Source: Candidatus Harrisonbacteria bacterium
GTDB taxonomy: Bacteria; Patescibacteriota; Minisyncoccia; UBA6257; 1-14-0-10-40-38
Reading direction: 5' to 3'
Assembly: GCA_023245035.1 (NCBI GenBank)
Contig: JAHFLD010000003.1
Span: 55,736-119,735, forward strand
Length of the DNA: 64,000 nucleotides
The translations under genes and the position numbers were made by a program. The first letter of the stretch is position 1; the number at the start of each line of letters is the position of its first letter. Shown here piece after piece: positions 4,237 through 62,336 of the stretch. The notes beneath the pieces are model-generated. The model made no database searches. It saw only the letters and a program-made list of their open reading frames with translations, and was not told where the DNA came from.

Positions 4237-4923
4237 ATGTTAGTTCAAAGTTGGGTTGATGTGTTGGTTGGTTCGCTTCAGGGATTGTATATTCAGGTGA
4301 TTAGTTTTTTGCCGTCGCTTCTCGGGGCCTTGGTGATTTTTGTCATCGGACTCGTGGTGGCTTACGGTTTGGAAAAGCTCGTGGAGCAAATCATCTACCA
4401 CTTGAAACTGGACAGCTTTTTGAAGCGGTTGGGTTTGGGGGTCTATTTTGAGCGCGCCAATTTGGAACTTAATGCCGGGCATTTTTTTGGAAAGCTCGTG
4501 TATTGGTTTATTTTGGTGGCATTCCTTTTGGCCTCATCCGACATTTTGGGTTTTTTCGCTCTTTCCGACTTCTTGAAGCAAGTCCTCGCGTACATCCCCA
4601 ATGTGGTGATTGCGGCGATGATTCTGCTCGCCTCGTTCGTGGTGGCTAAGTTCTTGCGCGGTTTGGTGCGCGCTTCGGTTTTGAGCGCGCGACTTCACGC
4701 GGCTAAGAGTCTTGGTACCGTGGCGTGGTGGGGAGTCATCGTTTTTGGATTTTTGTCGGCGCTCATCGAGCTTGGTGTGGCGGTGCCAATCATTCAAACT
4801 TTGATCACCGGTTTGGTGGCGATGCTCGCCTTGGCCGGAGGTTTGGCTTTCGGTTTGGGCGGCCGCGAACAAGCGGCGAATTTCTTGGAGAAGGTTCACG
4901 AAGAAATTCATCACAAGGAATAG
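4237..4923 (+). CDS. Hypothetical polytopic membrane protein with repeated conserved TM helices
   Basis: 228 aa, 5-6 hydrophobic helices, a glycine-rich C-terminal helix (GLAFGLGG). An ATG start with an AT-rich upstream region. Confidence 0.55.
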   Translation: MLVQSWVDVLVGSLQGLYIQVISFLPSLLGALVIFVIGLVVAYGLEKLVEQIIYHLKLDSFLKRLGLGVYFERANLELNAGHFFGKLVYWFILVAFLLASSDILGFFALSDFLKQVLAYIPNVVIAAMILLASFVVAKFLRGLVRASVLSARLHAAKSLGTVAWWGVIVFGFLSALIELGVAVPIIQTLITGLVAMLALAGGLAFGLGGREQAANFLEKVHEEIHHKE

Positions 4924-4945
4924 TTTTTTTTAAGCAGTGAAAAAT

Positions 4946-5009
4946 TAAAAAACCGCCAGTTTCGTTTTTCTCTGTGAGGGAGAGCGGCGAAACAAGGGGC
5001 GGTTTTTTA
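4946..5009 (+). terminator. Intrinsic terminator-like hairpin after the membrane protein gene
   Basis: aaaaaaccgcc ... ggggcggtttttt: GC-rich inverted repeat followed by a T-run. Confidence 0.45.
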
Positions 5010-38121: not shown

Positions 38122-39402
38122 ATGTTGCAGTCGGAACTTTTTACTAAAACTCGCAAGGAGGCGCCAAAGGACGAGGAGGCGATTAATGCCCAGCTTTTAG
38201 CACGCGGTGGGTTTGCGCGAAAAATGTCGGCCGGAGTTTATACCTATTTGCCGCTGGGTTTTCGGGTACTGCAGAAAATAGCCCAGGTGGTGAGAGAGGA
38301 GATGAATGCCATCGGAGGCGAGGAGCTGTTGTTTCCCGCGCTTATCGCGAGGGAGCACTGGGAAAAATCCAAGCGCTGGGGATTGAGGGTCGGCTACGAG
38401 TTCAAGTCGCCGGCGGGCGATGAGGTTGGTTTGGGCTGGACGCACGAAGAGGCGTCGGCTTTTGCCGCGGCGCAGTTTATAGAATCCTATAAGGACTTGC
38501 CCCGAGCCGTGTACCAGATCCAAAATAAGTTTCGGGCCGAGGCTCGCGCCAAGAGCGGACTATTGCGCGGGCGGGAGTTTTTAATGAAAGATCTTTACAG
38601 TTTTCATGCCGATAAGGCGGATCTGGATTTGTATTATCAAAAAGTTATCGCGGCTTATAAAAAAGTTTTTGTGCGACTCAATGTTCCGGTGCGATTGACC
38701 GAGGCCGGAGGCGGAGCCTTTACCGACGAGTATACCCACGAGTTTCAAGCTCTTTCTCCAGCGGGCGAGGACACGGTTTATTATTGCCCAAAGTGTGATT
38801 GGTCGCAGAACGAGGAGGTCGCGAAGGTTAAGGATGGCGAGAGGTGTCCCGCCTCTACGGCGGGCGAGCCCGCTTCTTCGGCTAACGAGCCTGCTTCTTC
38901 AGTTTGCGGTGGGACGGTTGCGATTGCTCGTGGAATTGAAGTCGGCAACGTTTTCAAACTTGGCACCAGGTATAGCGAGGCTTTTGGCGTGCAATTCACC
39001 GATCAGACCGGAAGCAAAAAACCGGCGGTGATGGGCTCTTACGGTATTGGCGTGAGTCGATTGCTCGCGACGCTGGTGGAATTACATCACGACGAAAGAG
39101 GTATTATCTGGCCAAAGGAGGCTTCGCCTTTTGCGGTTCATCTTCTGGTTCTGGGCGCCGAAGATACGGCAGTTGAGGCGCGGGGCCGAAAGGTGTACGA
39201 TTCGCTAACCAAGCGGGGAGTGGAGGTGCTTTATGATGATCGCGCCGTTTCGGCTGGAGAAAAGTTTGGCGATGCCGATTTGTTGGGCATAAGTCTTCGG
39301 GCGGTGGTTAGCGCTAAAACCGGAGACAAGATTGAGCTCAAGCGGAGGGACTCCAAAGAGGTTAAGCTTGTAACGCTTGAGGAGGCGATGGAGATGTTGT
39401 AG
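38122..39402 (+). CDS. proS: Prolyl-tRNA synthetase (class II), with a Cys-containing insertion
   Basis: ProRS signature (YTYLPLGFRVLQKI..REEM; motif 2 FRAE.R...GLLRGREFLMKDLYSFH; motif 3 region GGGAFT). Carries an insertion CPKCDWSQ...ERCPAS..(GEPASSA NEPASS)..CGG between motifs 2 and 3. Confidence 0.88.
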   Translation: MLQSELFTKTRKEAPKDEEAINAQLLARGGFARKMSAGVYTYLPLGFRVLQKIAQVVREEMNAIGGEELLFPALIAREHWEKSKRWGLRVGYEFKSPAGDEVGLGWTHEEASAFAAAQFIESYKDLPRAVYQIQNKFRAEARAKSGLLRGREFLMKDLYSFHADKADLDLYYQKVIAAYKKVFVRLNVPVRLTEAGGGAFTDEYTHEFQALSPAGEDTVYYCPKCDWSQNEEVAKVKDGERCPASTAGEPASSANEPASSVCGGTVAIARGIEVGNVFKLGTRYSEAFGVQFTDQTGSKKPAVMGSYGIGVSRLLATLVELHHDERGIIWPKEASPFAVHLLVLGAEDTAVEARGRKVYDSLTKRGVEVLYDDRAVSAGEKFGDADLLGISLRAVVSAKTGDKIELKRRDSKEVKLVTLEEAMEML

Positions 39403-40569: not shown

Positions 40570-41286
40570 GTGGTACGAAAATTTTTTCAACTTACATTAT
40601 TGATTCTTTTGGCTTACGCTGCTTTTTTTGGCGTGGCTCGGCTGATGCCGCGGAGCGGTTTGGGCGCGTTGATTTCCGACGCGGCACTGTTGCCGGTGGC
40701 CGTAGTCAAAAACTTTTCCACGACTTCTTCGATCTATCGCGATCTTTTGGACTTGCTGCGGGAGAATCAGAGTTTGCGGGCTCAACTGGCGGCGAATACT
40801 TTGACGACGCCCCTCCTATTGCCGTCGGATCGCAGGGTTATCCTGGCCAGAGTTTATTCGGCTTACCCGTTTAACGATCGCGGACTTTTGAGCATTAATG
40901 TCGGGAGTTTAGAGGGGGTGCGGGAAAAGACGCCGGTGACGATTGACGGCACCTTGTTGTTTGGGGTGGTGGAGCAGGTTTTTAAGGACTATAGCCTAGT
41001 GAGGACGATGTACGATCCGGAGTGGAAGTCGGCAGTCAAACTTGGTTCTCGACGCGTGGATGCCTTGCTTAAGGGCGGACGCGAGCCACGGCTTACTTTG
41101 ATAGTTAAGGGCAAGCCGGTCGCGGAGGGCGACTCAATTTATTCCGCTAGCCGCGATTTTCCCTATGGCTTGGCGGTTGGAGAGGTTGGCAAGCTGCAAT
41201 CCGGTCAGGCCGATGCTTTTGATGAAGCTCCGGTAGTTTTCCCGTACGAACTTTCCGACATTAACGAAGTTTATCTCTTGCTATGA
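40570..41286 (+). CDS. mreC: Rod shape-determining protein MreC
   Basis: N-terminal TM, coiled-coil (LLRENQSLRAQL), then two beta-barrel-like repeats. Immediately downstream of mreB. Confidence 0.75.
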   Translation: MVRKFFQLTLLILLAYAAFFGVARLMPRSGLGALISDAALLPVAVVKNFSTTSSIYRDLLDLLRENQSLRAQLAANTLTTPLLLPSDRRVILARVYSAYPFNDRGLLSINVGSLEGVREKTPVTIDGTLLFGVVEQVFKDYSLVRTMYDPEWKSAVKLGSRRVDALLKGGREPRLTLIVKGKPVAEGDSIYSASRDFPYGLAVGEVGKLQSGQADAFDEAPVVFPYELSDINEVYLLL

Positions 41287-41350
41287 TGGTTTACCCGGTT
41301 TCTGATTTGTGTCGCGAACCCCGCCAAGCACAGAAGTTAAATATTTATTT

Positions 41351-41833
41351 ATGAGATCTTTTTGGCCATGGCTCCTATTGGGAATTGTCTTTGTTTTTTT
41401 GGTTTTTCTACAGACAACTTCCTGGCTGATGGTTTTTGGCATTAGACCAAATTGGACCTTGTTGTTACTGACGACTCTTTCCTTTTTTGTCGGCAATTTC
41501 TTTTTGTTTATCGCGGCGGTAATTTTTACCGGATTGGTCATTTTTTCAGCTTCATCTTTTTTGCCGGTATTGGTGATTTCTGTTTTGGGTCTCTTGGCTT
41601 TTTGGCTGGGACATAGTTTGCCCGGAAAGCCATTTTTCAATAATTCCTTTATACTCGTCTTAGGAACATTTGTTTTTTATGGGTTAACCAATGCGGTTTT
41701 TTTGTCGGGCCATCCTTCGTTGGTCGCGGCCGAGGCTTTGATAAATGCTTTCTTTGGTTCTTTGTTTTTTTTGTCGCTTCGGTTTTTATTTAGAGACTCT
41801 CATGAAAAAAAGGCGCGAGTTGCAATTCGATGA
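41351..41833 (+). CDS. mreD: Rod shape-determining protein MreD (putative)
   Basis: 160-aa polytopic membrane protein (5 hydrophobic helices) located between mreC and PBP2. Identified by position and topology only. Confidence 0.5.
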   Translation: MRSFWPWLLLGIVFVFLVFLQTTSWLMVFGIRPNWTLLLLTTLSFFVGNFFLFIAAVIFTGLVIFSASSFLPVLVISVLGLLAFWLGHSLPGKPFFNNSFILVLGTFVFYGLTNAVFLSGHPSLVAAEALINAFFGSLFFLSLRFLFRDSHEKKARVAIR

Positions 41834-57041: not shown

Positions 57042-57371
57042 ATGTACGAATTCATTCTTCAGCTTCTAGTTTTTTCCAGTTTGAGTTTTGCTATCTATAT
57101 TTTGGCGCGCGCTTTGCCGCGAGTAAATTCAGAGGAGGATCGGGCGGCCGCTTCCGGGAGGCTTGATCGAATTGTCGCTAAGATTCCGTTTCATAAGATC
57201 GACGTTCAACTGACCTCTTTTTTGGAGAAATTTTTGCGGCGGGTTAGGGTGGTTTTGCTTAAAGTGGATAACCTGCTTTCGCATCATGTCCGCCGTTTAC
57301 GGGCGAGCAAGGAGGAGCAATCTTCGGAGAAGCGTTCCGGTCTTTTTGGCGGTGATAACAAGTCGGAGTAG
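57042..57371 (+). CDS. Hypothetical small membrane protein
   Basis: 109 aa with one N-terminal TM helix. No motif recognised. Confidence 0.35.
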   Translation: MYEFILQLLVFSSLSFAIYILARALPRVNSEEDRAAASGRLDRIVAKIPFHKIDVQLTSFLEKFLRRVRVVLLKVDNLLSHHVRRLRASKEEQSSEKRSGLFGGDNKSE

Positions 57372-57415: not shown

Positions 57416-57499
57416 GGGCAGGTGGCAGAGCGGTCAAATGCACGTGGCTGTAGACCACGCGCCCTTGTGGCTACGGGGGTTCGAATCCCTCCCTGCCCA
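57416..57499 (+). tRNA. tRNA-Tyr (anticodon GTA), long variable arm, no encoded CCA
   Basis: Acceptor GGGCAGG/CCTGCCC, anticodon loop CTGTAGA, long extra arm, T-loop GGTTCGAATCC. Confidence 0.85.
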
Positions 57500-57795
57500 C
57501 ATCTTTCTTGTTTTTTTGTGCGTACCTTTGTTGCTCGTTGTGTTTCCTGCTAAGCAGGATATGCCTTGATACTGCTTAGCAGATTACTCACTCGCGCCTC
57601 GGTTCGCGCAAAAAAATATCAAGAAATCTTCGGGGTTAAAATAAAATTTATCTAGTTGGATTGGGAGGGTGTTTTTCGCTTCGGCTGGATGTTGTCCGGC
57701 GAGCTTGCCTTTCTCTGCTTATTTAACTTACTATTGGCCTAGTTCTTTTAGCTCGTTCTTTGACACGATTCTTTTTACTAAGGAGATCTTTTCGA

Positions 57796-59466
57796 ATGTT
57801 CATACCGGAGTTCAAACCCCAGCCGGGAGTCGCCCTGCTGTCGGTTTACGACAAGACTGGAATTGTGGAGTTTGCCAATGGCCTGATTGCCATGGGCTGG
57901 AAGATTATCGCTTCCGGCGGTACCGCCAAGGTTTTGCGCGAAGCCGGTTTGTTGATCGGGGACGTGTCGGAACTGGTTCATGGCGAGCCGATTCTCGGTC
58001 ATCGCGTGGTAACGCTTTCGCGCGAGATTCATGCCGGACTCTTGGCGCAAGACACTCACGAGCACGCGCTGGAACTTAAGAAGCTGGGAATTCCGCGGAT
58101 TGACTTGGTTTGCGTGGACTTGTACCCGCTTAGGGAGGCGATTGAAGCTCCGAATCGAACGATTCACTCGGTGATTGAGATGACCGATATTGGCGGGCCG
58201 ACGCTTTTGCGGAGCGCCGCCAAGGGTAACCGGATTGTGATTTCCCGAAGCATCGACCGGAGCGCCGTGCTTAGATGGCTTCAAAAAGGGATGCCAAACA
58301 AGGAGCAGATGCTGCGCCATTTGGCCGCCAGAGCGGAAGATGAAGTGGCAAGGTATTGCACCTGGTCGGCTTGGTTTCTTAGCGATGGGCGTTTTGATGG
58401 GTTGCTAGGCGAGCGGGCATTGAATTGCAAGTATGGCGAGAATCCTTGGCAGGAGGGGGCGGCGTTCTATACCGCCGGCAAGAAGGTTGACCATCTGGCG
58501 CTTGATAAGTTTATGGCCAGGCTCGGAACCGATCCGAGTTACAACAATTTGTGCGACTTGGATCGCGCGTTGCAGACCATGACGCACATGGCTGTCGCTC
58601 TTAATGCCGGGCCTTTAGCCATATCCGAGAAGAGTATCAAGCTGGCTTTGGCCGTTAAGCATGGTAATCCGTGCGGCGCGGCTTGGGGTTTTGGTTTGAC
58701 TGAAGAGGCGGATGTCGTTCGGCGAATGGTAGCGGGTGATCCGCGGGCAATCTTTGGCGGCCTGGTGATGACTAACTTTGTTTTGACGGATGCTTGCGTT
58801 GAGTTGCTTTTGCATCACGGCTTGCCTAGGGGACAGAAGCGGGTTTTGGATGTTGTGGCCGCGGCGGGTATTACTGAGGAAGCTCTTAAGCTATTGGAGC
58901 GTAAAAACGGCAAGTGTCGAGTGATGATTAATTCTGATTTGGATGACTGGTCATTGCTTGCTCGCTTGGACGATGCTCCGCGTTTTAGGATGGTGCGCGG
59001 CGGGTTCTTGGCGCAACCGAACTACGTCTTCGCGCTTCGCGATTGGGACCAGTATCAATTTGCTTGGCCAAAGAAGACTACTTCCGAAGAAAAGCTTCGC
59101 CTGATAGAAGATATGTTTATGGCGTGGGCGATCGGATCTACAAGCAACAGCAATACCGTGACATTGGTTCGCGACCGGACTTTGATTGGCAATGGAGTCG
59201 GTCAGCAAGATCGGGTTAGCTGTGCTGAACTGGCCGTGAAGCGAGCGCGGTCGGCGGGACACGCTACCAAGGGTGCCGTAGCTTACAGTGACAGCTTCTT
59301 CCCGTTTGTTGACGGTCCAGAGGTTTTGATCAAGGCCGGTATTGCCGCCATTATGGTATCAAGCGGTTCGGTGAACGATGAGAAGGTGGTGAAGTTGTGC
59401 GCGAGACGGGGGATTGGGTTGCTGATGCTTCCGGATGCCGAGTGCAGGGGTTTCTTTGGTCATTGA
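57796..59466 (+). CDS. purH: Bifunctional AICAR transformylase / IMP cyclohydrolase
   Basis: MGS-like N-terminal domain (ALLSVYDKTGIVEFA; IASGGTAKVL) and AICARFT domain blocks (DIGGPT; YGENPWQ; SYNNL.D; KHGNPCG; FGG; YSDSFFPF). AGGAG ribosome-binding site 10 nt upstream. Confidence 0.9.
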   Translation: MFIPEFKPQPGVALLSVYDKTGIVEFANGLIAMGWKIIASGGTAKVLREAGLLIGDVSELVHGEPILGHRVVTLSREIHAGLLAQDTHEHALELKKLGIPRIDLVCVDLYPLREAIEAPNRTIHSVIEMTDIGGPTLLRSAAKGNRIVISRSIDRSAVLRWLQKGMPNKEQMLRHLAARAEDEVARYCTWSAWFLSDGRFDGLLGERALNCKYGENPWQEGAAFYTAGKKVDHLALDKFMARLGTDPSYNNLCDLDRALQTMTHMAVALNAGPLAISEKSIKLALAVKHGNPCGAAWGFGLTEEADVVRRMVAGDPRAIFGGLVMTNFVLTDACVELLLHHGLPRGQKRVLDVVAAAGITEEALKLLERKNGKCRVMINSDLDDWSLLARLDDAPRFRMVRGGFLAQPNYVFALRDWDQYQFAWPKKTTSEEKLRLIEDMFMAWAIGSTSNSNTVTLVRDRTLIGNGVGQQDRVSCAELAVKRARSAGHATKGAVAYSDSFFPFVDGPEVLIKAGIAAIMVSSGSVNDEKVVKLCARRGIGLLMLPDAECRGFFGH

Positions 59467-59574
59467 AAGTGGTTTCAAAGCTCGGGTTTTTACCCGGGCT
59501 TTTTTATTGGCGCATCACTTTCTATTTATCGTTTTTTGTGGTATTTTTTTTCTGTTCTGTGAGAGATTTTTTTT

Positions 59575-59645
59575 GCCCCTTTAGCTCAATGGCAGAGCGA
59601 TGCTTTTGTAAAGCATGGATGTCAGTTCGATTCTGACAAGGGGCT
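59575..59645 (+). tRNA. tRNA-Thr (anticodon TGT), no encoded CCA
   Basis: Acceptor GCCCCTT/AAGGGGC, D-arm GCTCAATGGCAGAGC, anticodon stem ATGCT/AGCAT with loop TTTGTAA, T-loop GTTCGATTC. Confidence 0.85.
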
Positions 59646-59684
59646 CAAATTTATTAGTTTTGAGTACCTTCACCAAAGGGGGTA

Positions 59685-60128
59685 TTGTGGTATTATGTAG
59701 AATGCATGGATACTTGTATGGGTTGCAGAAAAACTCTTTCTGAGCGTCATCAAGTTAAATATTGTTCGAATAAATGTCAGACTGATTATCAATATAAATA
59801 CTGGGTGAAGCGCTGGAAGAATGGTTTTGTGAGTGGGGGTGTCGGAATTACTGTAAGAACTGTTTCTTCTCATTTAAAGCGGTACTTGAGCGAAAAATTT
59901 AATGATCGCTGTTCTATGTGTTGTTGGAATAAAAGACATCCAATAACTGGCGTTGTCCCTTTAGAAATTGATCACATCGATGGGAATGCAGAGAATAATA
60001 TTGAAAGAAATTTGAGACTACTTTGTCCGAATTGCCATGCCTTGACCCCTTTTTATAAGAATCTTAATAAGGGCAATGGGAGAAAATGGCGTATGGATAA
60101 ATATCTTCGCAACAAACCTACTAAATAA
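59685..60128 (+). CDS. HNH endonuclease
   Basis: Two CxxC pairs and the HNH core EIDHIDGN...N...NLRLLCPNCHA. The gene is markedly AT-rich relative to its surroundings and starts 40 nt after tRNA-Thr(UGU). Confidence 0.75.
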   Translation: MWYYVECMDTCMGCRKTLSERHQVKYCSNKCQTDYQYKYWVKRWKNGFVSGGVGITVRTVSSHLKRYLSEKFNDRCSMCCWNKRHPITGVVPLEIDHIDGNAENNIERNLRLLCPNCHALTPFYKNLNKGNGRKWRMDKYLRNKPTK

Positions 60129-60173
60129 TACTTAAGATTTGAGAGCCGACTCCAGGTTTAGCTTGGTCTCTCT

Positions 60174-60719
60174 TTGTCTCTGTTCAATATTCATATGAAC
60201 CAGCCCCTTGTAATCAAAACTTTTGTGGCGATAAAAAATATCCGCTATTTGAATGTTTTTAACCGCCCAGCGCGAGGCCAGGCGATGGTCGGTATAATTA
60301 TATTTTCATTTTCGATTTGGTTTCTTGCTAATTCGGAGTTGGGGATCGGATTATATCTTTTTTTTGGTGTGGTTTTTGCGGTGACTTTTTATATCGCGGT
60401 GGTCCAGGTAATTAGGTTAAGACCCGGAATTATTGAGGCCACGGCCCGGGGGAATCTATTTGAGACCGAGAGATCTTACGATGGAACCAAAACTTTTTCT
60501 TCAAAAATACCCTCCATTGGCGGAGTTGTTGGCGTGGCTTTGTACGCCTTTCTTTCGCGTTTTGAGAATTCTGTTGTGGCTGGAGCCTTGCTTGGAATTA
60601 TTATGACCATAGGGCCTGCTTTGATTTTAGGCGTTAGTCTTGCCTATATTTATCTGGAACATAAGATTCAACGCCAGATATTGGTGCAGAGATATGAGGT
60701 TCTGAAAGTTAAGGAGTGA
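60174..60719 (+). CDS. Hypothetical membrane protein
   Basis: 181 aa with 4 hydrophobic helices. No motif recognised. Confidence 0.4.
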   Translation: MSLFNIHMNQPLVIKTFVAIKNIRYLNVFNRPARGQAMVGIIIFSFSIWFLANSELGIGLYLFFGVVFAVTFYIAVVQVIRLRPGIIEATARGNLFETERSYDGTKTFSSKIPSIGGVVGVALYAFLSRFENSVVAGALLGIIMTIGPALILGVSLAYIYLEHKIQRQILVQRYEVLKVKE

Positions 60720-60816
60720 GCTCGGGGAATAACTTGGAGCTATCAAGCGAGTGCGCTCATTGAAAGATTTGGCTATTTTACCTATACTCTCTGGAGTTCT
60801 TTGTGATTGCTGTTTT

Positions 60817-60871
60817 GCCAATGTAGCTCAGATGGTAGACCCGCCTGCCGGACGGGCAGGGCAACTCCATG
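60817..60871 (+). pseudogene. Partial 5' copy of tRNA-Thr(GGU): nt 1-34 interrupted by a 21-nt palindromic insert
   Basis: 60817-60839 is identical to nt 1-23 of the intact tRNA at 61120, and 60861-60871 is identical to nt 24-34 (GCAACTCCATG). The 21-nt insert CCCGCCTGCCGGACGGGCAGG (60840-60860) forms a hairpin. The sequence then diverges into the GIY-YIG ORF. Confidence 0.8.
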
Positions 60872-61129
60872 TATTATGTTTATGTTCTTAAAAGCTTAAG
60901 TGATCAAAAGCATTACACTGGAATGTCTATTGATCTTGAAAAAAGACTACGAAAGCATAATCGCGGCGCCAAGGGAACTCCATCAACTCGATCTCGCGGC
61001 CCGTTCTCATTAGTTTATTGCGAGAGAGTAGCTACTAGGGTAGAAGCAAGAAGAAGGGAGAAGTTTTTGAAATCAGGATTTGGCAGGGAGTTTATAAAGA
61101 ATTTTGTTGAAAAAGATTTGCCAATGTAG
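60869..61129 (+). CDS. Minimal GIY-YIG nuclease-domain protein (86 aa)
   Basis: MYYVYVLKS...HYTGMS.DLEKRLRKHN matches the GIY-YIG catalytic core (GIY..YIG..R..H.N). The start codon is the ATG of the tRNA anticodon-loop copy, and the stop TAG lies inside the first 10 nt of the intact tRNA-Thr. AT-rich. Confidence 0.7.
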   Translation: MYYVYVLKSLSDQKHYTGMSIDLEKRLRKHNRGAKGTPSTRSRGPFSLVYCERVATRVEARRREKFLKSGFGREFIKNFVEKDLPM

Positions 61130-61195
61130 CTCAGATGGTAGAGCAACTCCATGGTAAGGAGTAGGTCGCCGGTTCAATTCCGGCCATTGGCTCCA
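61120..61195 (+). tRNA. tRNA-Thr (anticodon GGT), CCA encoded
   Basis: GCCAATG TA GCTCAGATGGTAGAGC A ACTCC ATGGTAA GGAGT AGGTC GCCGGTTCAATTCCGGC CATTGGC T CCA. Confidence 0.9.
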
Positions 61196-61394
61196 AGATC
61201 AGCGCCGTAATTTCACCGGTTCCCGGTTGCCGCTTTGGGGCGGCATTGCGATTTCTAAACGCTCAAGCCTTCGCGTAGAAATCGGGAACAATTCCGGCCA
61301 TTGGCTCCACCGGAAATGAAAGAAGGATGGGTCGGAGGGGTCGTTTTTTGTTTTTCTTGCTTTTTTGATCCCGATGTTTTAGAGTGTTCTAACT

Positions 61395-61565
61395 ATGTCC
61401 GAATCCAAGTTTTCTAAAAATCTCATTAAATTGCGCTGTGGCACCTGTAAGCGATTTAATTATTACACGCGCAAGAATGTGAAGCTGGTAACGCGCAAAA
61501 TTGAGTTGAGTAAGTTTTGCAAGTTTTGCCGGAAACATACCACCCACAAGGAGGCGAAGAGGTAG
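61395..61565 (+). CDS. rpmG: 50S ribosomal protein L33
   Basis: Translates to MSESKFSKNLIKLRCGTCKRFNYYTRKNVKLVTRKIELSKFCKFCRKHTTHKEAKR, the L33 CxxC...CxxC zinc ribbon. 56 aa, below the ORF-track cutoff. Confidence 0.8.
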   Translation: MSESKFSKNLIKLRCGTCKRFNYYTRKNVKLVTRKIELSKFCKFCRKHTTHKEAKR

Positions 61566-61681
61566 GATTTTTATTAAGTCTAGAAATATAGCGAGTTAGT
61601 TATCGCGGATTTTTTTTAGGGTCTTGGTTGCCTAGCTTTTTTGTTTGGGTTAGGCTTGTTATTGGGTATCTTTTATAGTCT

Positions 61682-61752
61682 GGGAGCTTAAGTAAGTGGC
61701 ATACTGGCGGTCTCCAAAACCGCACTCGGGGGTTCGATTCCCTCAGCTCCCG
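61682..61752 (+). tRNA. tRNA-Trp (anticodon CCA), no encoded CCA end
   Basis: Acceptor GGGAGCT/AGCTCCC, anticodon stem GCGGT/ACCGC with loop CTCCAAA, T-loop GGTTCGATTCC. Confidence 0.85.
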
Positions 61753-61760
61753 CAGTAGAT

Positions 61761-61964
61761 ATGAATTTCATTTGCTCAATTCTAGATGTTTTTATTATAC
61801 CGCTTAGCTATCTATTTATCATCCCTCTATCTTTGGGCATTGCGTATGATAGTCTAAAATCTAAAGATGAATCAAAACGAGAGAAGTTTTTTATTTTTGG
61901 CTTATTAGCTTGGTTTGTCGGTGGGCTGTCCTATGGTGAGTCGCCCGTTAGTTTTTGTTCTTGA
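61761..61964 (+). CDS. Hypothetical small AT-rich membrane protein
   Basis: 67 aa, two hydrophobic segments, AT-rich. Possibly spurious. Confidence 0.25.
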   Translation: MNFICSILDVFIIPLSYLFIIPLSLGIAYDSLKSKDESKREKFFIFGLLAWFVGGLSYGESPVSFCS

Positions 61965-62264
61965 TTTTTTTCTATTTGGCGTCCAGGTCTTATTTACTTT
62001 TTTTCTTATGGCGTGTTAGCTTTAATATAGCTTTTATTCTTATGAACAAAAAAACTAAAGTTGCTCGGAAGAAGCATCGCAGAAAGCAGGGGAGGAAAGT
62101 TCCTTCTTTGCGACATCGATAAACTAAGACCGCCCTATTGTGTTGGGGCGGTTTTAGTTTGGGATTAAAAAAAATTGTGCTGTTCCGTTTTTTAGGAAGC
62201 TCCGATGTTGCAATCGGAGCACTTGTTGTTTCTAAACTCGCTACGTTCGTTAAGAAAAACTAAG

Positions 62265-62336
62265 TGCGCGTGGAAGGAATCGAACCTTCGACCCCAGTCT
62301 TATCAGGACTGTGCTCTACCACTGAGCTACACGCGC
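62265..62336 (-). tRNA. tRNA-Ile (anticodon GAT)
   Basis: Reverse complement GCGCGTG TA GCTCAGTGGTAGAGC A CAGTC CTGATAA GACTG GGGTC GAAGGTTCGATTCCTTC CACGCGC A. Confidence 0.85.

Follow-up and report, generated by a model that had tools for sequence, protein, structure and literature searches.

A minimal GIY-YIG nuclease gene nested in a duplicated tRNA-Thr(GGU) gene, and a phage-type HNH gene, in a conserved tRNA/rpmG cluster of a Patescibacteria chromosome

The subject of this study is a 2.8 kb stretch of the genome of a Candidatus Harrisonbacteria bacterium (Patescibacteriota; assembly GCA_023245035.1, contig JAHFLD010000003.1), in which the genes of two free-standing nucleases, one of the GIY-YIG and one of the HNH type, lie between tRNA genes and rpmG. 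It covers positions 59575-62336 of the window, which is the whole stretch of 64,000 nucleotides (nt) that was analysed and to whose first letter all coordinates refer. The GIY-YIG gene is nested in a duplicated tRNA-Thr(GGU) gene. It starts in the anticodon loop of a spare copy of the tRNA, which is split by a GC-rich palindrome, and it stops within the intact copy. With reasonable though not high confidence we read the stretch as a cluster conserved in Patescibacteria (tRNA-Tyr, tRNA-Thr(UGU), tRNA-Thr(GGU), rpmG and tRNA-Trp) to which selfish nuclease genes and insertion scars have accreted. An initial annotation, made from the sequence alone, had proposed repeated invasion of a conserved tRNA/rpmG neighbourhood by homing-type nucleases. 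The duplicated tRNA fragments and the palindrome, which are the strongest evidence for an invasion, were not part of it.

Results and Discussion

The GIY-YIG cassette in tRNA-Thr(GGU)

The cassette and the tRNA that it occupies consist of the following elements. All tRNA genes were called with ARAGORN and Rfam (59-75 bits in Rfam).

60760-60788, + strand: match to a sigma-70-like promoter consensus (TTGAAA-17-TATACT) that lies 28 nt upstream of the spare tRNA copy
60814-60839, + strand: spare copy of tRNA-Thr(GGU), 3 leader nt and tRNA positions 1-23, a perfect 26-nt direct repeat of 61117-61142
60840-60860, + strand: GC-rich palindrome of 21 nt, CCCGCCTGCCGGACGGGCAGG, which splits the spare copy at the junction of D-loop and D-stem
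60861-60871, + strand: spare copy resumed, tRNA positions 24-34, a perfect 11-nt repeat (GCAACTCCATG) found by repeat search
60869-61129, + strand: open reading frame (ORF) of 86 amino acids (aa), minimal Slx1/UPF0213-like GIY-YIG nuclease (PF01541), GC content at third codon positions (GC3) 0.32
61120-61195, + strand: intact tRNA-Thr(GGU) (ARAGORN, Rfam 70 bits)

The start codon of the ORF (ATG, 60869-60871) coincides with anticodon-loop positions 32-34 of the spare copy, and the N-terminus shared by the family, MYYVYVLKS, starts exactly at this ATG. The stop codon (TAG, 61127-61129) is formed by U8-A9-G10 of the intact tRNA. As a complete tRNA-Thr(GGU) follows the ORF, the function of the tRNA is kept. 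The promoter match is, judged from its consensus, probably the original promoter of tRNA-Thr(GGU), which would now drive the cassette.

That this ORF encodes a GIY-YIG protein, as initially annotated, is borne out by a PF01541 score of 51.5 bits (cut-off 22.6, E 1.3e-13) and by the catalytic residues Y5, Y16, R26, H30 and E64, which are invariant in 56 sequences and all present in the window protein. Profile matches in the PDB are to UPF0213 proteins (1e-12) and to SLX1 (1e-5). The PF01541 domain takes up residues 1-71, no DNA-binding domain was found in the 86-aa protein, and its 82 homologs are likewise all short single-domain proteins of 78-125 aa. Against the group I intron endonuclease model TIGR01453 the protein stays at 18.7 bits (cut-off 56, E 1.4e-3). 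It has no match among the PHROG families or in plasmids, and a tblastn search of 50,697 phage records was empty.

Within the window only tRNA-Thr(GGU) is duplicated: no tRNA-fragment repeats of 9 nt or more were found around the Thr-UGU, Trp, Ile and Tyr tRNAs, and neither the GIY-YIG nor the HNH gene has a second copy. The palindrome motif has one other match in the window, a generic CCCGCC..GGCGGG hairpin at 38848 without the trailing CAGG that often accompanies the motif. When the leader RNA of the cassette is folded the hairpin forms; the stability of the region is not unusual (z +0.86).

Six distant relatives from the Candidate Phyla Radiation (CPR) could be compared at this site, and in all of them tRNA-Thr(GGU) lacks the cassette (L104, L109, L184, L185, L186 and L188; L-numbers designate fetched loci, and the CPR loci were all retrieved through the HNH gene itself).

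Two further explanations of the insert were rejected. Group I introns within genes for tRNAs are known from Patescibacteria (PMC13011429). Rfam returned nothing but tRNAs at E<=1, however, and behind the inserted protein ORF comes a whole tRNA instead of a 3' half. A split or permuted tRNA fails too, because the fragments (positions 1-34 and the last 21 nt) cannot build a tRNA.

The duplication might also be an artefact, that is, a misassembly or chimera of the metagenome-assembled genome (MAG) at a repeated tRNA sequence. Contigs of several homologs (L013, L014) do end near the cassette, which indicates that assemblers struggle at these repeats. Two other independent assemblies nevertheless show the arrangement with 100% identity, and a third (L012) matches it at 99.6% as far as the 3' end of the tRNA; contigs of up to 155 kb are among the matching assemblies. 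The same architecture moreover recurs, at different tRNAs, in dozens of samples that are unrelated. An artefact is hardly credible.

The GIY-YIG family across metagenomes

A metagenome scan gave 531 confirmed stretches with homologs of the GIY-YIG protein, and 80 loci were fetched (81 with the window). A count of tRNAs no farther than 200 nt from the ORF gave 48 in these 80 loci, without exception on the strand of the ORF, which amounts to 1.56 tRNAs per kb compared to 0.088 per kb elsewhere. Among these neighbours 17 different anticodons are represented. The nearest protein relatives of the window ORF (61-64% identity) are found at a tRNA-Asn gene and at one that resembles tRNA-His; ORFs that are close kin thus sit in different tRNA genes. 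Also the position of the stop codon recurs. In eight loci, in addition to the window, it lies inside the tRNA at offset -9, where TAG is U8A9G10; a second recurring offset is -20 to -22, where TAG falls in the D-loop.

Direct repeats derived from the tRNA flank the ORF on both sides in 50 of the 81 loci. Gap-tolerant alignment revealed that one tRNA copy is intact while the other, partial or full-length, is broken by GC-rich palindromes of 15-41 nt. Such a palindrome-bearing spare copy is present in at least 16 loci, and some spare copies hold two palindromes. Overall, about half of the 80 loci have the design seen in the window. Two layouts occur. The first, to which the window belongs, has the order spare copy, ORF, intact tRNA; the second has the order intact tRNA, ORF, spare copy and is chiefly found with tRNA-Arg(ACG) in GC-rich genomes.

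The palindromes are located at stem/loop junctions, namely after tRNA index 9, 11-12, 18, 21-23, 32 or 39, of which 21-23 is the commonest site and also that of the window. The palindrome CCTGCCTGCCGGCAGGCAGG is identical in at least ten loci, and another form reads (T/C)CCGCC-NNN-GGCGG(A/G), often followed by CAGG. Counted as CCYGCC..GGCRGG, the motif reaches 39 occurrences in the 66 kb that lie no more than 300 nt from the ORFs, compared to five in the other 212 kb, an enrichment of about 25-fold. The possibility that the palindrome derives from ORF sequence was dismissed, since the motifs are rare inside ORFs. A variant, CCTGCCTACCGGTAGGCAGG (L112 339-358; L066 around 370), differs by a symmetric pair of changes and is still a perfect palindrome, which suggests selection on the palindrome itself.

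In a rough tree the association with tRNA and palindrome is found in the upper clades, comprising about 45 loci. Eight contigs in IMG/VR carry relatives of the GIY-YIG gene, several of them with the same palindromes.

Some loci hold more than one unit or a longer duplication. Tandem GIY-YIG ORFs, each followed by a tRNA copy, were seen in L040 (1-500) and L035 (239-1000). The spare copies of these units carry the palindrome and the last copy is intact in L040, an arrangement that resembles the amplification units of tRNA and segB driven by SegB. The duplication in L021 (2356-2500, 2856-2969) comprises a whole tRNA-Arg together with about 55 nt of its leader/promoter region. Across the loci the duplicated segment thus ranges from about 24 to about 130 nt, which is more readily reconciled with break repair than with a transposase of fixed stagger.

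No prior description of a GIY-YIG gene combined with tRNA duplication and palindrome was found in the searchable literature, which is no proof of absence. From the free-standing GIY-YIG genes known in tRNA clusters of phages the cassette differs in its protein architecture, its chromosomal residence, the regular duplication of its target and the companion palindrome.

A second insertion site at the tRNA 3' end

Directly downstream of the intact tRNA two further elements were identified.

61196-61288, + strand: insert of 93 nt that separates the tRNA from the repeat of its 3' end and contains the hairpin TGCCGCTTTGGGGCGGCA
61289-61309, + strand: perfect 21-nt repeat of the tRNA-Thr(GGU) 3' end, from T-loop to CCA, found by repeat search

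Insert and repeat together are a third, independent insertion scar. The strain variant L012 (471-626, compared to 61196-61309 in the window) carries another insert there, about 130 nt long, and behind it too stands the repeated 3' end of the tRNA, here together with 6 nt of flank (CTCCGGCCATTGGCTCCACAAATG). As the inserts differ, the 3' end of tRNA-Thr(GGU) is a second, strain-variable insertion hot spot. No integrase was seen beside the 3' inserts.

Repeats of this kind are the classic signature of integration at a tRNA 3' end, and the differing insert with its similar bounding repeat in L012 agrees with it. All tRNA-fragment repeats of the cluster could accordingly be scars of the attL/attR type left by an integrase, with the GIY-YIG ORF and the 93-nt insert as cargo that remained after a larger island was deleted. 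A serine recombinase and phage-like genes just downstream of a GIY-associated tRNA-Asn in L015 also speak for such an origin. In the window, however, there is no integrase or recombinase ORF between the repeats, beside them or next to the cluster, and a duplication of the tRNA 5' part that ends in the anticodon loop is atypical for integrases. More than 40 homolog loci have only the ORF of about 250 nt between the tRNA copies, at reading-frame-precise offsets, and none of the 80 loci contains a larger integrase-bearing element bounded by the same repeats. The conserved palindrome inside one copy would be left unaccounted for. We consider this origin quite improbable. What the window shares with integrative elements at tRNA 3' ends is the 21-nt repeat with strain-variable DNA in between; it differs from them in the missing integrase, in the small size of the inserts (about 93-130 nt) and in a GIY-YIG cassette that duplicates the 5' part of the tRNA.

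The unit of GIY-YIG gene and tRNA-Asn is followed by the serine recombinase and small phage-like ORFs in L015 (4277-8252), or by a Fic protein in L017 (3534-4978). These differing neighbours indicate that a tRNA occupied by the GIY-YIG gene is also an integration site for larger elements.

The conserved cluster and its base composition

The host genes that form or adjoin the cluster, in addition to tRNA-Thr(GGU), are the following.

57416-57500, + strand: tRNA-Tyr(GUA) (ARAGORN, Rfam), upstream of the studied stretch, opens the conserved CPR tRNA cluster
57760-59466, + strand: purH (AICARFT/IMPCHase; Pfam 2e-42), GC3 0.61
59575-59646, + strand: tRNA-Thr(UGU) (ARAGORN, Rfam 69 bits)
61395-61565, + strand: rpmG, ribosomal protein L33/bL33 (Pfam L33 3e-16; TIGR01023)
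61682-61753, + strand: tRNA-Trp(CCA) (ARAGORN, Rfam)
62264-62336, - strand: tRNA-Ile(GAU), convergent, with which the cluster ends (ARAGORN, Rfam 75.5 bits)

The four tRNAs within 2.8 kb and the rpmG gene of the initial annotation were thereby confirmed. The identity of rpmG follows from the equivalog model TIGR01023 (62.3 bits, cut-off 23.95), and its product is 53-66% identical to that of L104, L109, L184 and L186; an exact-sequence look-up of the window L33 protein gave no record. In the same four distant CPR relatives the order tRNA-Thr(UGU), tRNA-Thr(GGU), rpmG, tRNA-Trp is kept, and the DNA between these elements differs from genome to genome.

The GC content falls from 0.50 to 0.36-0.39 in the cluster. 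Over the 64 kb, windows of 400 nt have a mean GC of 0.496 with a standard deviation of 0.042, and values below 0.40 were found only at 59451-60400, 61501-62250 and 41251-41700. The last of these patches lies around the junction of two ORFs at 40570-41286 and 41309-41833. The GC3 values are 0.31 for the HNH gene, 0.32 for the GIY-YIG gene and 0.31 for an ORF of 67 aa behind tRNA-Trp, compared to 0.50-0.61 for rpsB, tsf, purH, rpoB, rpoC and rpmG. Because GC3 is largely independent of amino-acid content and is low as well, the drop is more than a matter of amino-acid composition. The overall GC of rpmG is also low (0.42), due to its first codon positions, while its GC3 of 0.61 is host-like. Thus the sliding GC and the GC3 values both agree with the drop on the nuclease side, relative to the purH side, that had been noticed by eye.

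The HNH gene beside tRNA-Thr(UGU)

59718-60128, + strand: free-standing HNH endonuclease gene, 136 aa (PHROG HNH families, homologs), GC3 0.31

The PHROG HNH families match the protein at 1e-15, 1e-14 and 5e-14, whereas the Pfam HNH family PF01844 gives 20.1 bits and is just below its cut-off of 21.4. In the translation the motif DH..N..N..CPNCH and two cysteine pairs can be read. The gene is real. Homologs and gene callers set its start at the ATG at 59718, 71 nt past the 3' end of tRNA-Thr(UGU), and the spacing of 40 nt originally given for it has to be corrected.

A total of 1812 homologs was found, most of them 60-74% identical. In ten of ten further CPR loci (L098, L099, L103, L104, L107, L109, L184, L185, L186 and L188) tRNA-Thr(UGU) lies directly 5' of the HNH gene, and the common context is rpsB-tsf-hypothetical gene-(tRNA-Tyr)-tRNA-Thr(UGU)-HNH. 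By the initial annotation, nucleases kept in the same gene order across distant relatives would have meant an ancestral and not a mobile state; for the HNH gene the order is conserved, in 11 of 11 CPR loci with the window included.

This fixed position is an argument for regarding both nucleases as ordinary, vertically inherited host genes, the HNH gene being tied to a tRNA-Thr/rpmG operon and the GIY-YIG protein being an Slx1-like enzyme of repair or RNA processing that is co-expressed with tRNAs. The strong conservation of the HNH protein among its many homologs, the wide occurrence of stand-alone UPF0213/Slx1-like proteins without known mobility (PMC1564403) and the low overall GC of rpmG are all in line with it. 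The low GC of the nuclease genes would then be due to a composition rich in Lys and Asn or to low expression. The low GC3 of both nuclease genes beside host-like values even in rpmG argues against this, and the HNH gene shows the same in other genomes: its GC3 is 0.26 in L109 (host genes 0.52-0.68) and 0.42 in L099 (host genes 0.52-0.64), and L099, L104 and L109 together span 0.26-0.50 compared to 0.52-0.68 in their host genes. It is thus low in all four hosts of higher GC (these three and the window; host GC3 0.50-0.68), while L098 and L107, which are AT-rich, do not show this contrast. Among the CPR loci the HNH protein is 61-74% identical, compared to 35-44% for RpsB and 36-64% for Tsf, and its similarity ranking does not track that of RpsB and Tsf. 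The GIY-YIG gene, for its part, is absent from the site in six relatives, has its nearest kin at other tRNAs and is flanked by target duplications.

The relatives of the HNH gene in viruses bear on the same question, as they are embedded in phage tRNA arrays. In 64 of 66 viral loci (31-57% identity) tRNAs occur within 1.5 kb. A same-strand tRNA is directly adjacent to 38 of 49 distinct viral HNH genes, and the commonest neighbour is again Thr(UGU), with 15 cases. The end of tRNA-Thr(tgt) lies 1 nt before an HNH coding sequence (49.5% identity) in Raoultella phage Ro1, and HNH gene and tRNA-Thr(TGT) adjoin each other in Ochrobactrum phage OC. The similarity to hegA of phage T5 is distant and confined to the core (35% identity over residues 21-119, E 6e-7); in the tRNA region of T5, hegA is separated by 24 nt from the preceding tRNA-Ile2. 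ORFs for the F-Tfl HNH endonucleases of T5 (F-TflI/II/IV) have been described from the tRNA cluster of this phage (PMC2330249).

The window HNH gene thus shares with hegA and the HNH genes of phage tRNA arrays a homologous core and a place shortly downstream of a tRNA on the same strand. It differs from them in residing on cellular chromosomes, where the CPR proteins form a tight group of their own (60-74% identical to each other, 31-57% to viral proteins), and in that the CPR genes always have tRNA-Thr(UGU) as their neighbour. Compared to hegA it is also shorter (136 versus 227 aa). It is a new member, in CPR chromosomes, of a kind already known in phage tRNA clusters, and its observed position fits a site-linked gene of the homing type, for which homing activity would be expected. 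We read it as mobile or selfish in spite of the fixed order because its identity exceeds that of RpsB, its GC3 is low in hosts of higher GC and its relatives lie in phage tRNA arrays. That both nucleases should be ordinary host genes we regard as unlikely.

The proposal of repeated invasion holds in the main, with corrections. The kept skeleton with variable DNA in between, the absence of the GIY-YIG gene from relatives together with the duplication of its target, and the foreign GC3 all support it, and the fixed place of the HNH gene in all 11 CPR loci examined does not.

How the cassette may have spread

The arrangement of the cassette is observed. As to its origin, we think it fairly probable, by analogy with SegB of phages T4 and T6, that it was inserted by a duplicative event of the break-repair type. 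In T4 and T6 the GIY-YIG gene likewise lies among same-strand tRNA genes of many isotypes (PMC2330249; PMC13096335), its ORF extends into the tRNA that follows, whose maturation parts the ORF from its stop, and tandem duplications of tRNA and nuclease gene occur. SegB cleaves tRNA genes through the T-psi-C motif, and segB is co-transcribed with tRNAs whose maturation cuts between the last codon and the stop (PMC2330249). It also drives a recombination-dependent tandem amplification of the tRNA+segB unit (PMC13096335).

By the same logic the window ORF would be transcribed from the tRNA promoter and translated from the ATG in the anticodon loop of the spare copy. With the ORF ending at U8-A9-G10, maturation of the intact tRNA by RNase P would cut the mRNA 7 nt ahead of the stop; the resulting non-stop mRNA would keep nuclease output low, as proposed for T4 segB. 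The nuclease would break the DNA of a tRNA gene, and recombinational repair would copy the ORF together with tRNA sequence and leave a tandem tRNA duplication, as demonstrated experimentally for SegB. The palindrome clearly inactivates the spare copy, which it would also mark, and it divides the direct repeat into pieces of about 10-40 nt, which should slow deletion by recombination. The bias of the palindrome sites towards stem/loop junctions suggests recognition of structure, as for SLX1.

The two systems also differ. SegB has about 220 aa and a DNA-binding region, whereas the window protein is a bare catalytic domain of the Slx1/UPF0213 branch, and beyond the superfamily the TIGR01453, PHROG and phage-record searches gave no significant link in sequence. 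While segB belongs to phages, the window gene is found on bacterial chromosomes, and a conserved palindrome in one tRNA copy is found in the window family only and not reported for SegB. In their single minimal domain the stand-alone UPF0213/Slx1-like proteins BH0048 (PDB 1ZG2) and EF2693 (PDB 1YWL) are like the window protein (profile E 1e-12 and 9e-12), and this branch is regarded as a minimal, possibly ancestral GIY-YIG form (PMC1564403). For UPF0213 proteins no tie to tRNA genes or mobility is reported; in the family of the window protein, by contrast, a set of clades nests in duplicated tRNA genes with a palindrome.

Mitochondria offer an analogy. The atp6 element of Allomyces is a mobile endonuclease ORF that carries a replacement piece of its target gene, and fungal mitochondria contain mobile GC-rich palindromic clusters. 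The cassette is comparable to these in that an ORF sits in an essential gene, a duplicated segment keeps the function and GC-rich palindromes are present, whereas genomes, targets and nuclease architecture are different.

Several points weigh against duplicative insertion and against the selfish nature of the two genes. Cleavage activity and target are predicted for both nucleases. All characterised GIY-YIG homing enzymes, unlike the 86-aa protein, have a DNA-binding domain, so that target finding lies outside the model. The intact tRNA beside the ORF should remain a target, and self-immunity is likewise outside the model, which also gives no source or insertion route for the conserved palindrome. 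One large separate clade (about 29-30 of the 81 loci) has neither tRNA nor palindrome. A conspecific pair of an empty and a filled site was not found for the GIY-YIG or the HNH gene. Finally, the HNH gene is present in every CPR locus examined, these loci having been found through it, and a fixed position is also expected of a host gene.

A wider reading, which we put forward tentatively and hold to be rather doubtful as a whole, is that some clades of Slx1/UPF0213-like minimal GIY-YIG proteins are ultra-small mobile elements of about 250 nt living inside tRNA genes. It combines four proposals. The bare nuclease domain may recognise DNA structure, namely the stem/loop junctions of extruded tRNA-gene DNA, and not sequence; the target tRNA would be duplicated, with the host keeping a working copy; the nuclease may work with the palindrome CCYGCC..GGCRGG of 15-22 nt, which would be inserted into the spare copy or used as a site there; and nuclease and palindrome would form a two-part system, loosely like RAYT/REP, that spreads over CPR, Bacteroidota, Omnitrophota, GC-rich soil bacteria and phages.

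The CPR tRNA/rpmG neighbourhood hosts both kinds of free-standing nuclease that are known from phage tRNA clusters, and so links CPR chromosomes to the phage gene pool. For part of the stand-alone UPF0213/Slx1-like GIY-YIG family a concrete and testable role can be offered. The recurrent architecture of spare tRNA copy, conserved palindrome, ORF and intact tRNA accounts for fragments of tRNA pseudogenes and for broken contigs in metagenome assemblies, and could mislead tRNA annotation. A nuclease gene whose stop lies inside the next tRNA would also be a simple natural example of toxic gene expression coupled to tRNA processing.

Other open reading frames and the terminator

The remaining features of the stretch are listed below.

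60195-60719, + strand: membrane-protein ORF of 174-181 aa, fills the slot between the HNH gene and tRNA-Thr(GGU)
61761-61964, + strand: AT-rich ORF of 67 aa, GC3 0.31
62042-62122, + strand: basic ORF of 26 aa, from the ORF list only
62120-62161: perfect hairpin of 18 bp with A-tract and U-tract flanks (free energy -28.1 kcal/mol, z -8.0)

The membrane-protein ORF has no match in Pfam, NCBIfam or PHROG, and with eight homologs of 26-40% identity among 1.84e9 representatives it belongs to a rare family. Its slot is variable in the relatives: it is empty in L184, a DUF192 gene lies there in L104, and L109 and L186 have other ORFs; proteins of 138 aa and 205 aa are among those encoded in the slot. 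L104 and L184 have about 43 nt between tRNA-Thr(GGU) and rpmG, but in L109 and L186 ORFs of 131 and 621 aa lie there.

The AT-rich ORF of 67 aa right after tRNA-Trp does exist. Only the ORF itself was matched among 5.8e9 proteins, and it has no Pfam, NCBIfam or PHROG family. It is thus an orphan and a putative gene. In L104 tRNA-Trp is followed by about 680 nt (4290-4970) of ORF-poor, GC-rich DNA without an Rfam match at the gathering threshold. As the corresponding 510 nt of the window (61754-62263) are AT-rich orphan DNA, the region after tRNA-Trp is not conserved.

The 26-aa ORF matches no Pfam or NCBIfam family and has no tblastn match in the relatives. Its peptide, MNKKTKVARKKHRRKQGRKVPSLRHR, aligns end to end with the 26-aa mitoribosomal protein mS161 (PDB 9fi8, E 0.06). 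It also aligns with mS75 of Toxoplasma (9hqv). The likeness to mitoribosomal peptides is probably a matter of Lys/Arg composition, although the same length and the common ends MNKK...SLR.R are curious. A bS22-like or other ribosomal peptide was rejected, as no family supports it and the PDB matches (E 0.06) are driven by composition. A motif like that of Shine and Dalgarno precedes only 10 of 40 large ORFs, and since so few large ORFs have one, its presence or absence says little about the small ORFs. The 26-aa ORF had been thought to possess its own terminator. Both ORF and hairpin exist, but the gene is unsupported, and from its position between the + strand cluster and the convergent tRNA-Ile the hairpin is better read as a probable bidirectional intrinsic terminator.

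Upstream of the stretch, purH is 82% identical to that of the nearest MAG (L001), where it also follows tRNA-Tyr. In L104 tRNA-Tyr and tRNA-Thr(UGU) are 175 nt apart, whereas in the window purH lies between them. In purH relatives of 43-55% identity the gene is not beside these tRNAs and the contexts are unrelated; the L001 contig ends within purH. The gene is uncommon in CPR. Its host-like GC3 of 0.61 implies that, if purH was inserted, the event is old. A hypothetical ORF at 57042-57371, after tsf and before the tRNA cluster, is also present in several CPR relatives (L001, L104); it encodes 109-161 aa with about 33% identity to the L104 copy, has no Pfam match and looks like a conserved CPR gene. 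Tsf itself is short in the window, with 146 aa.

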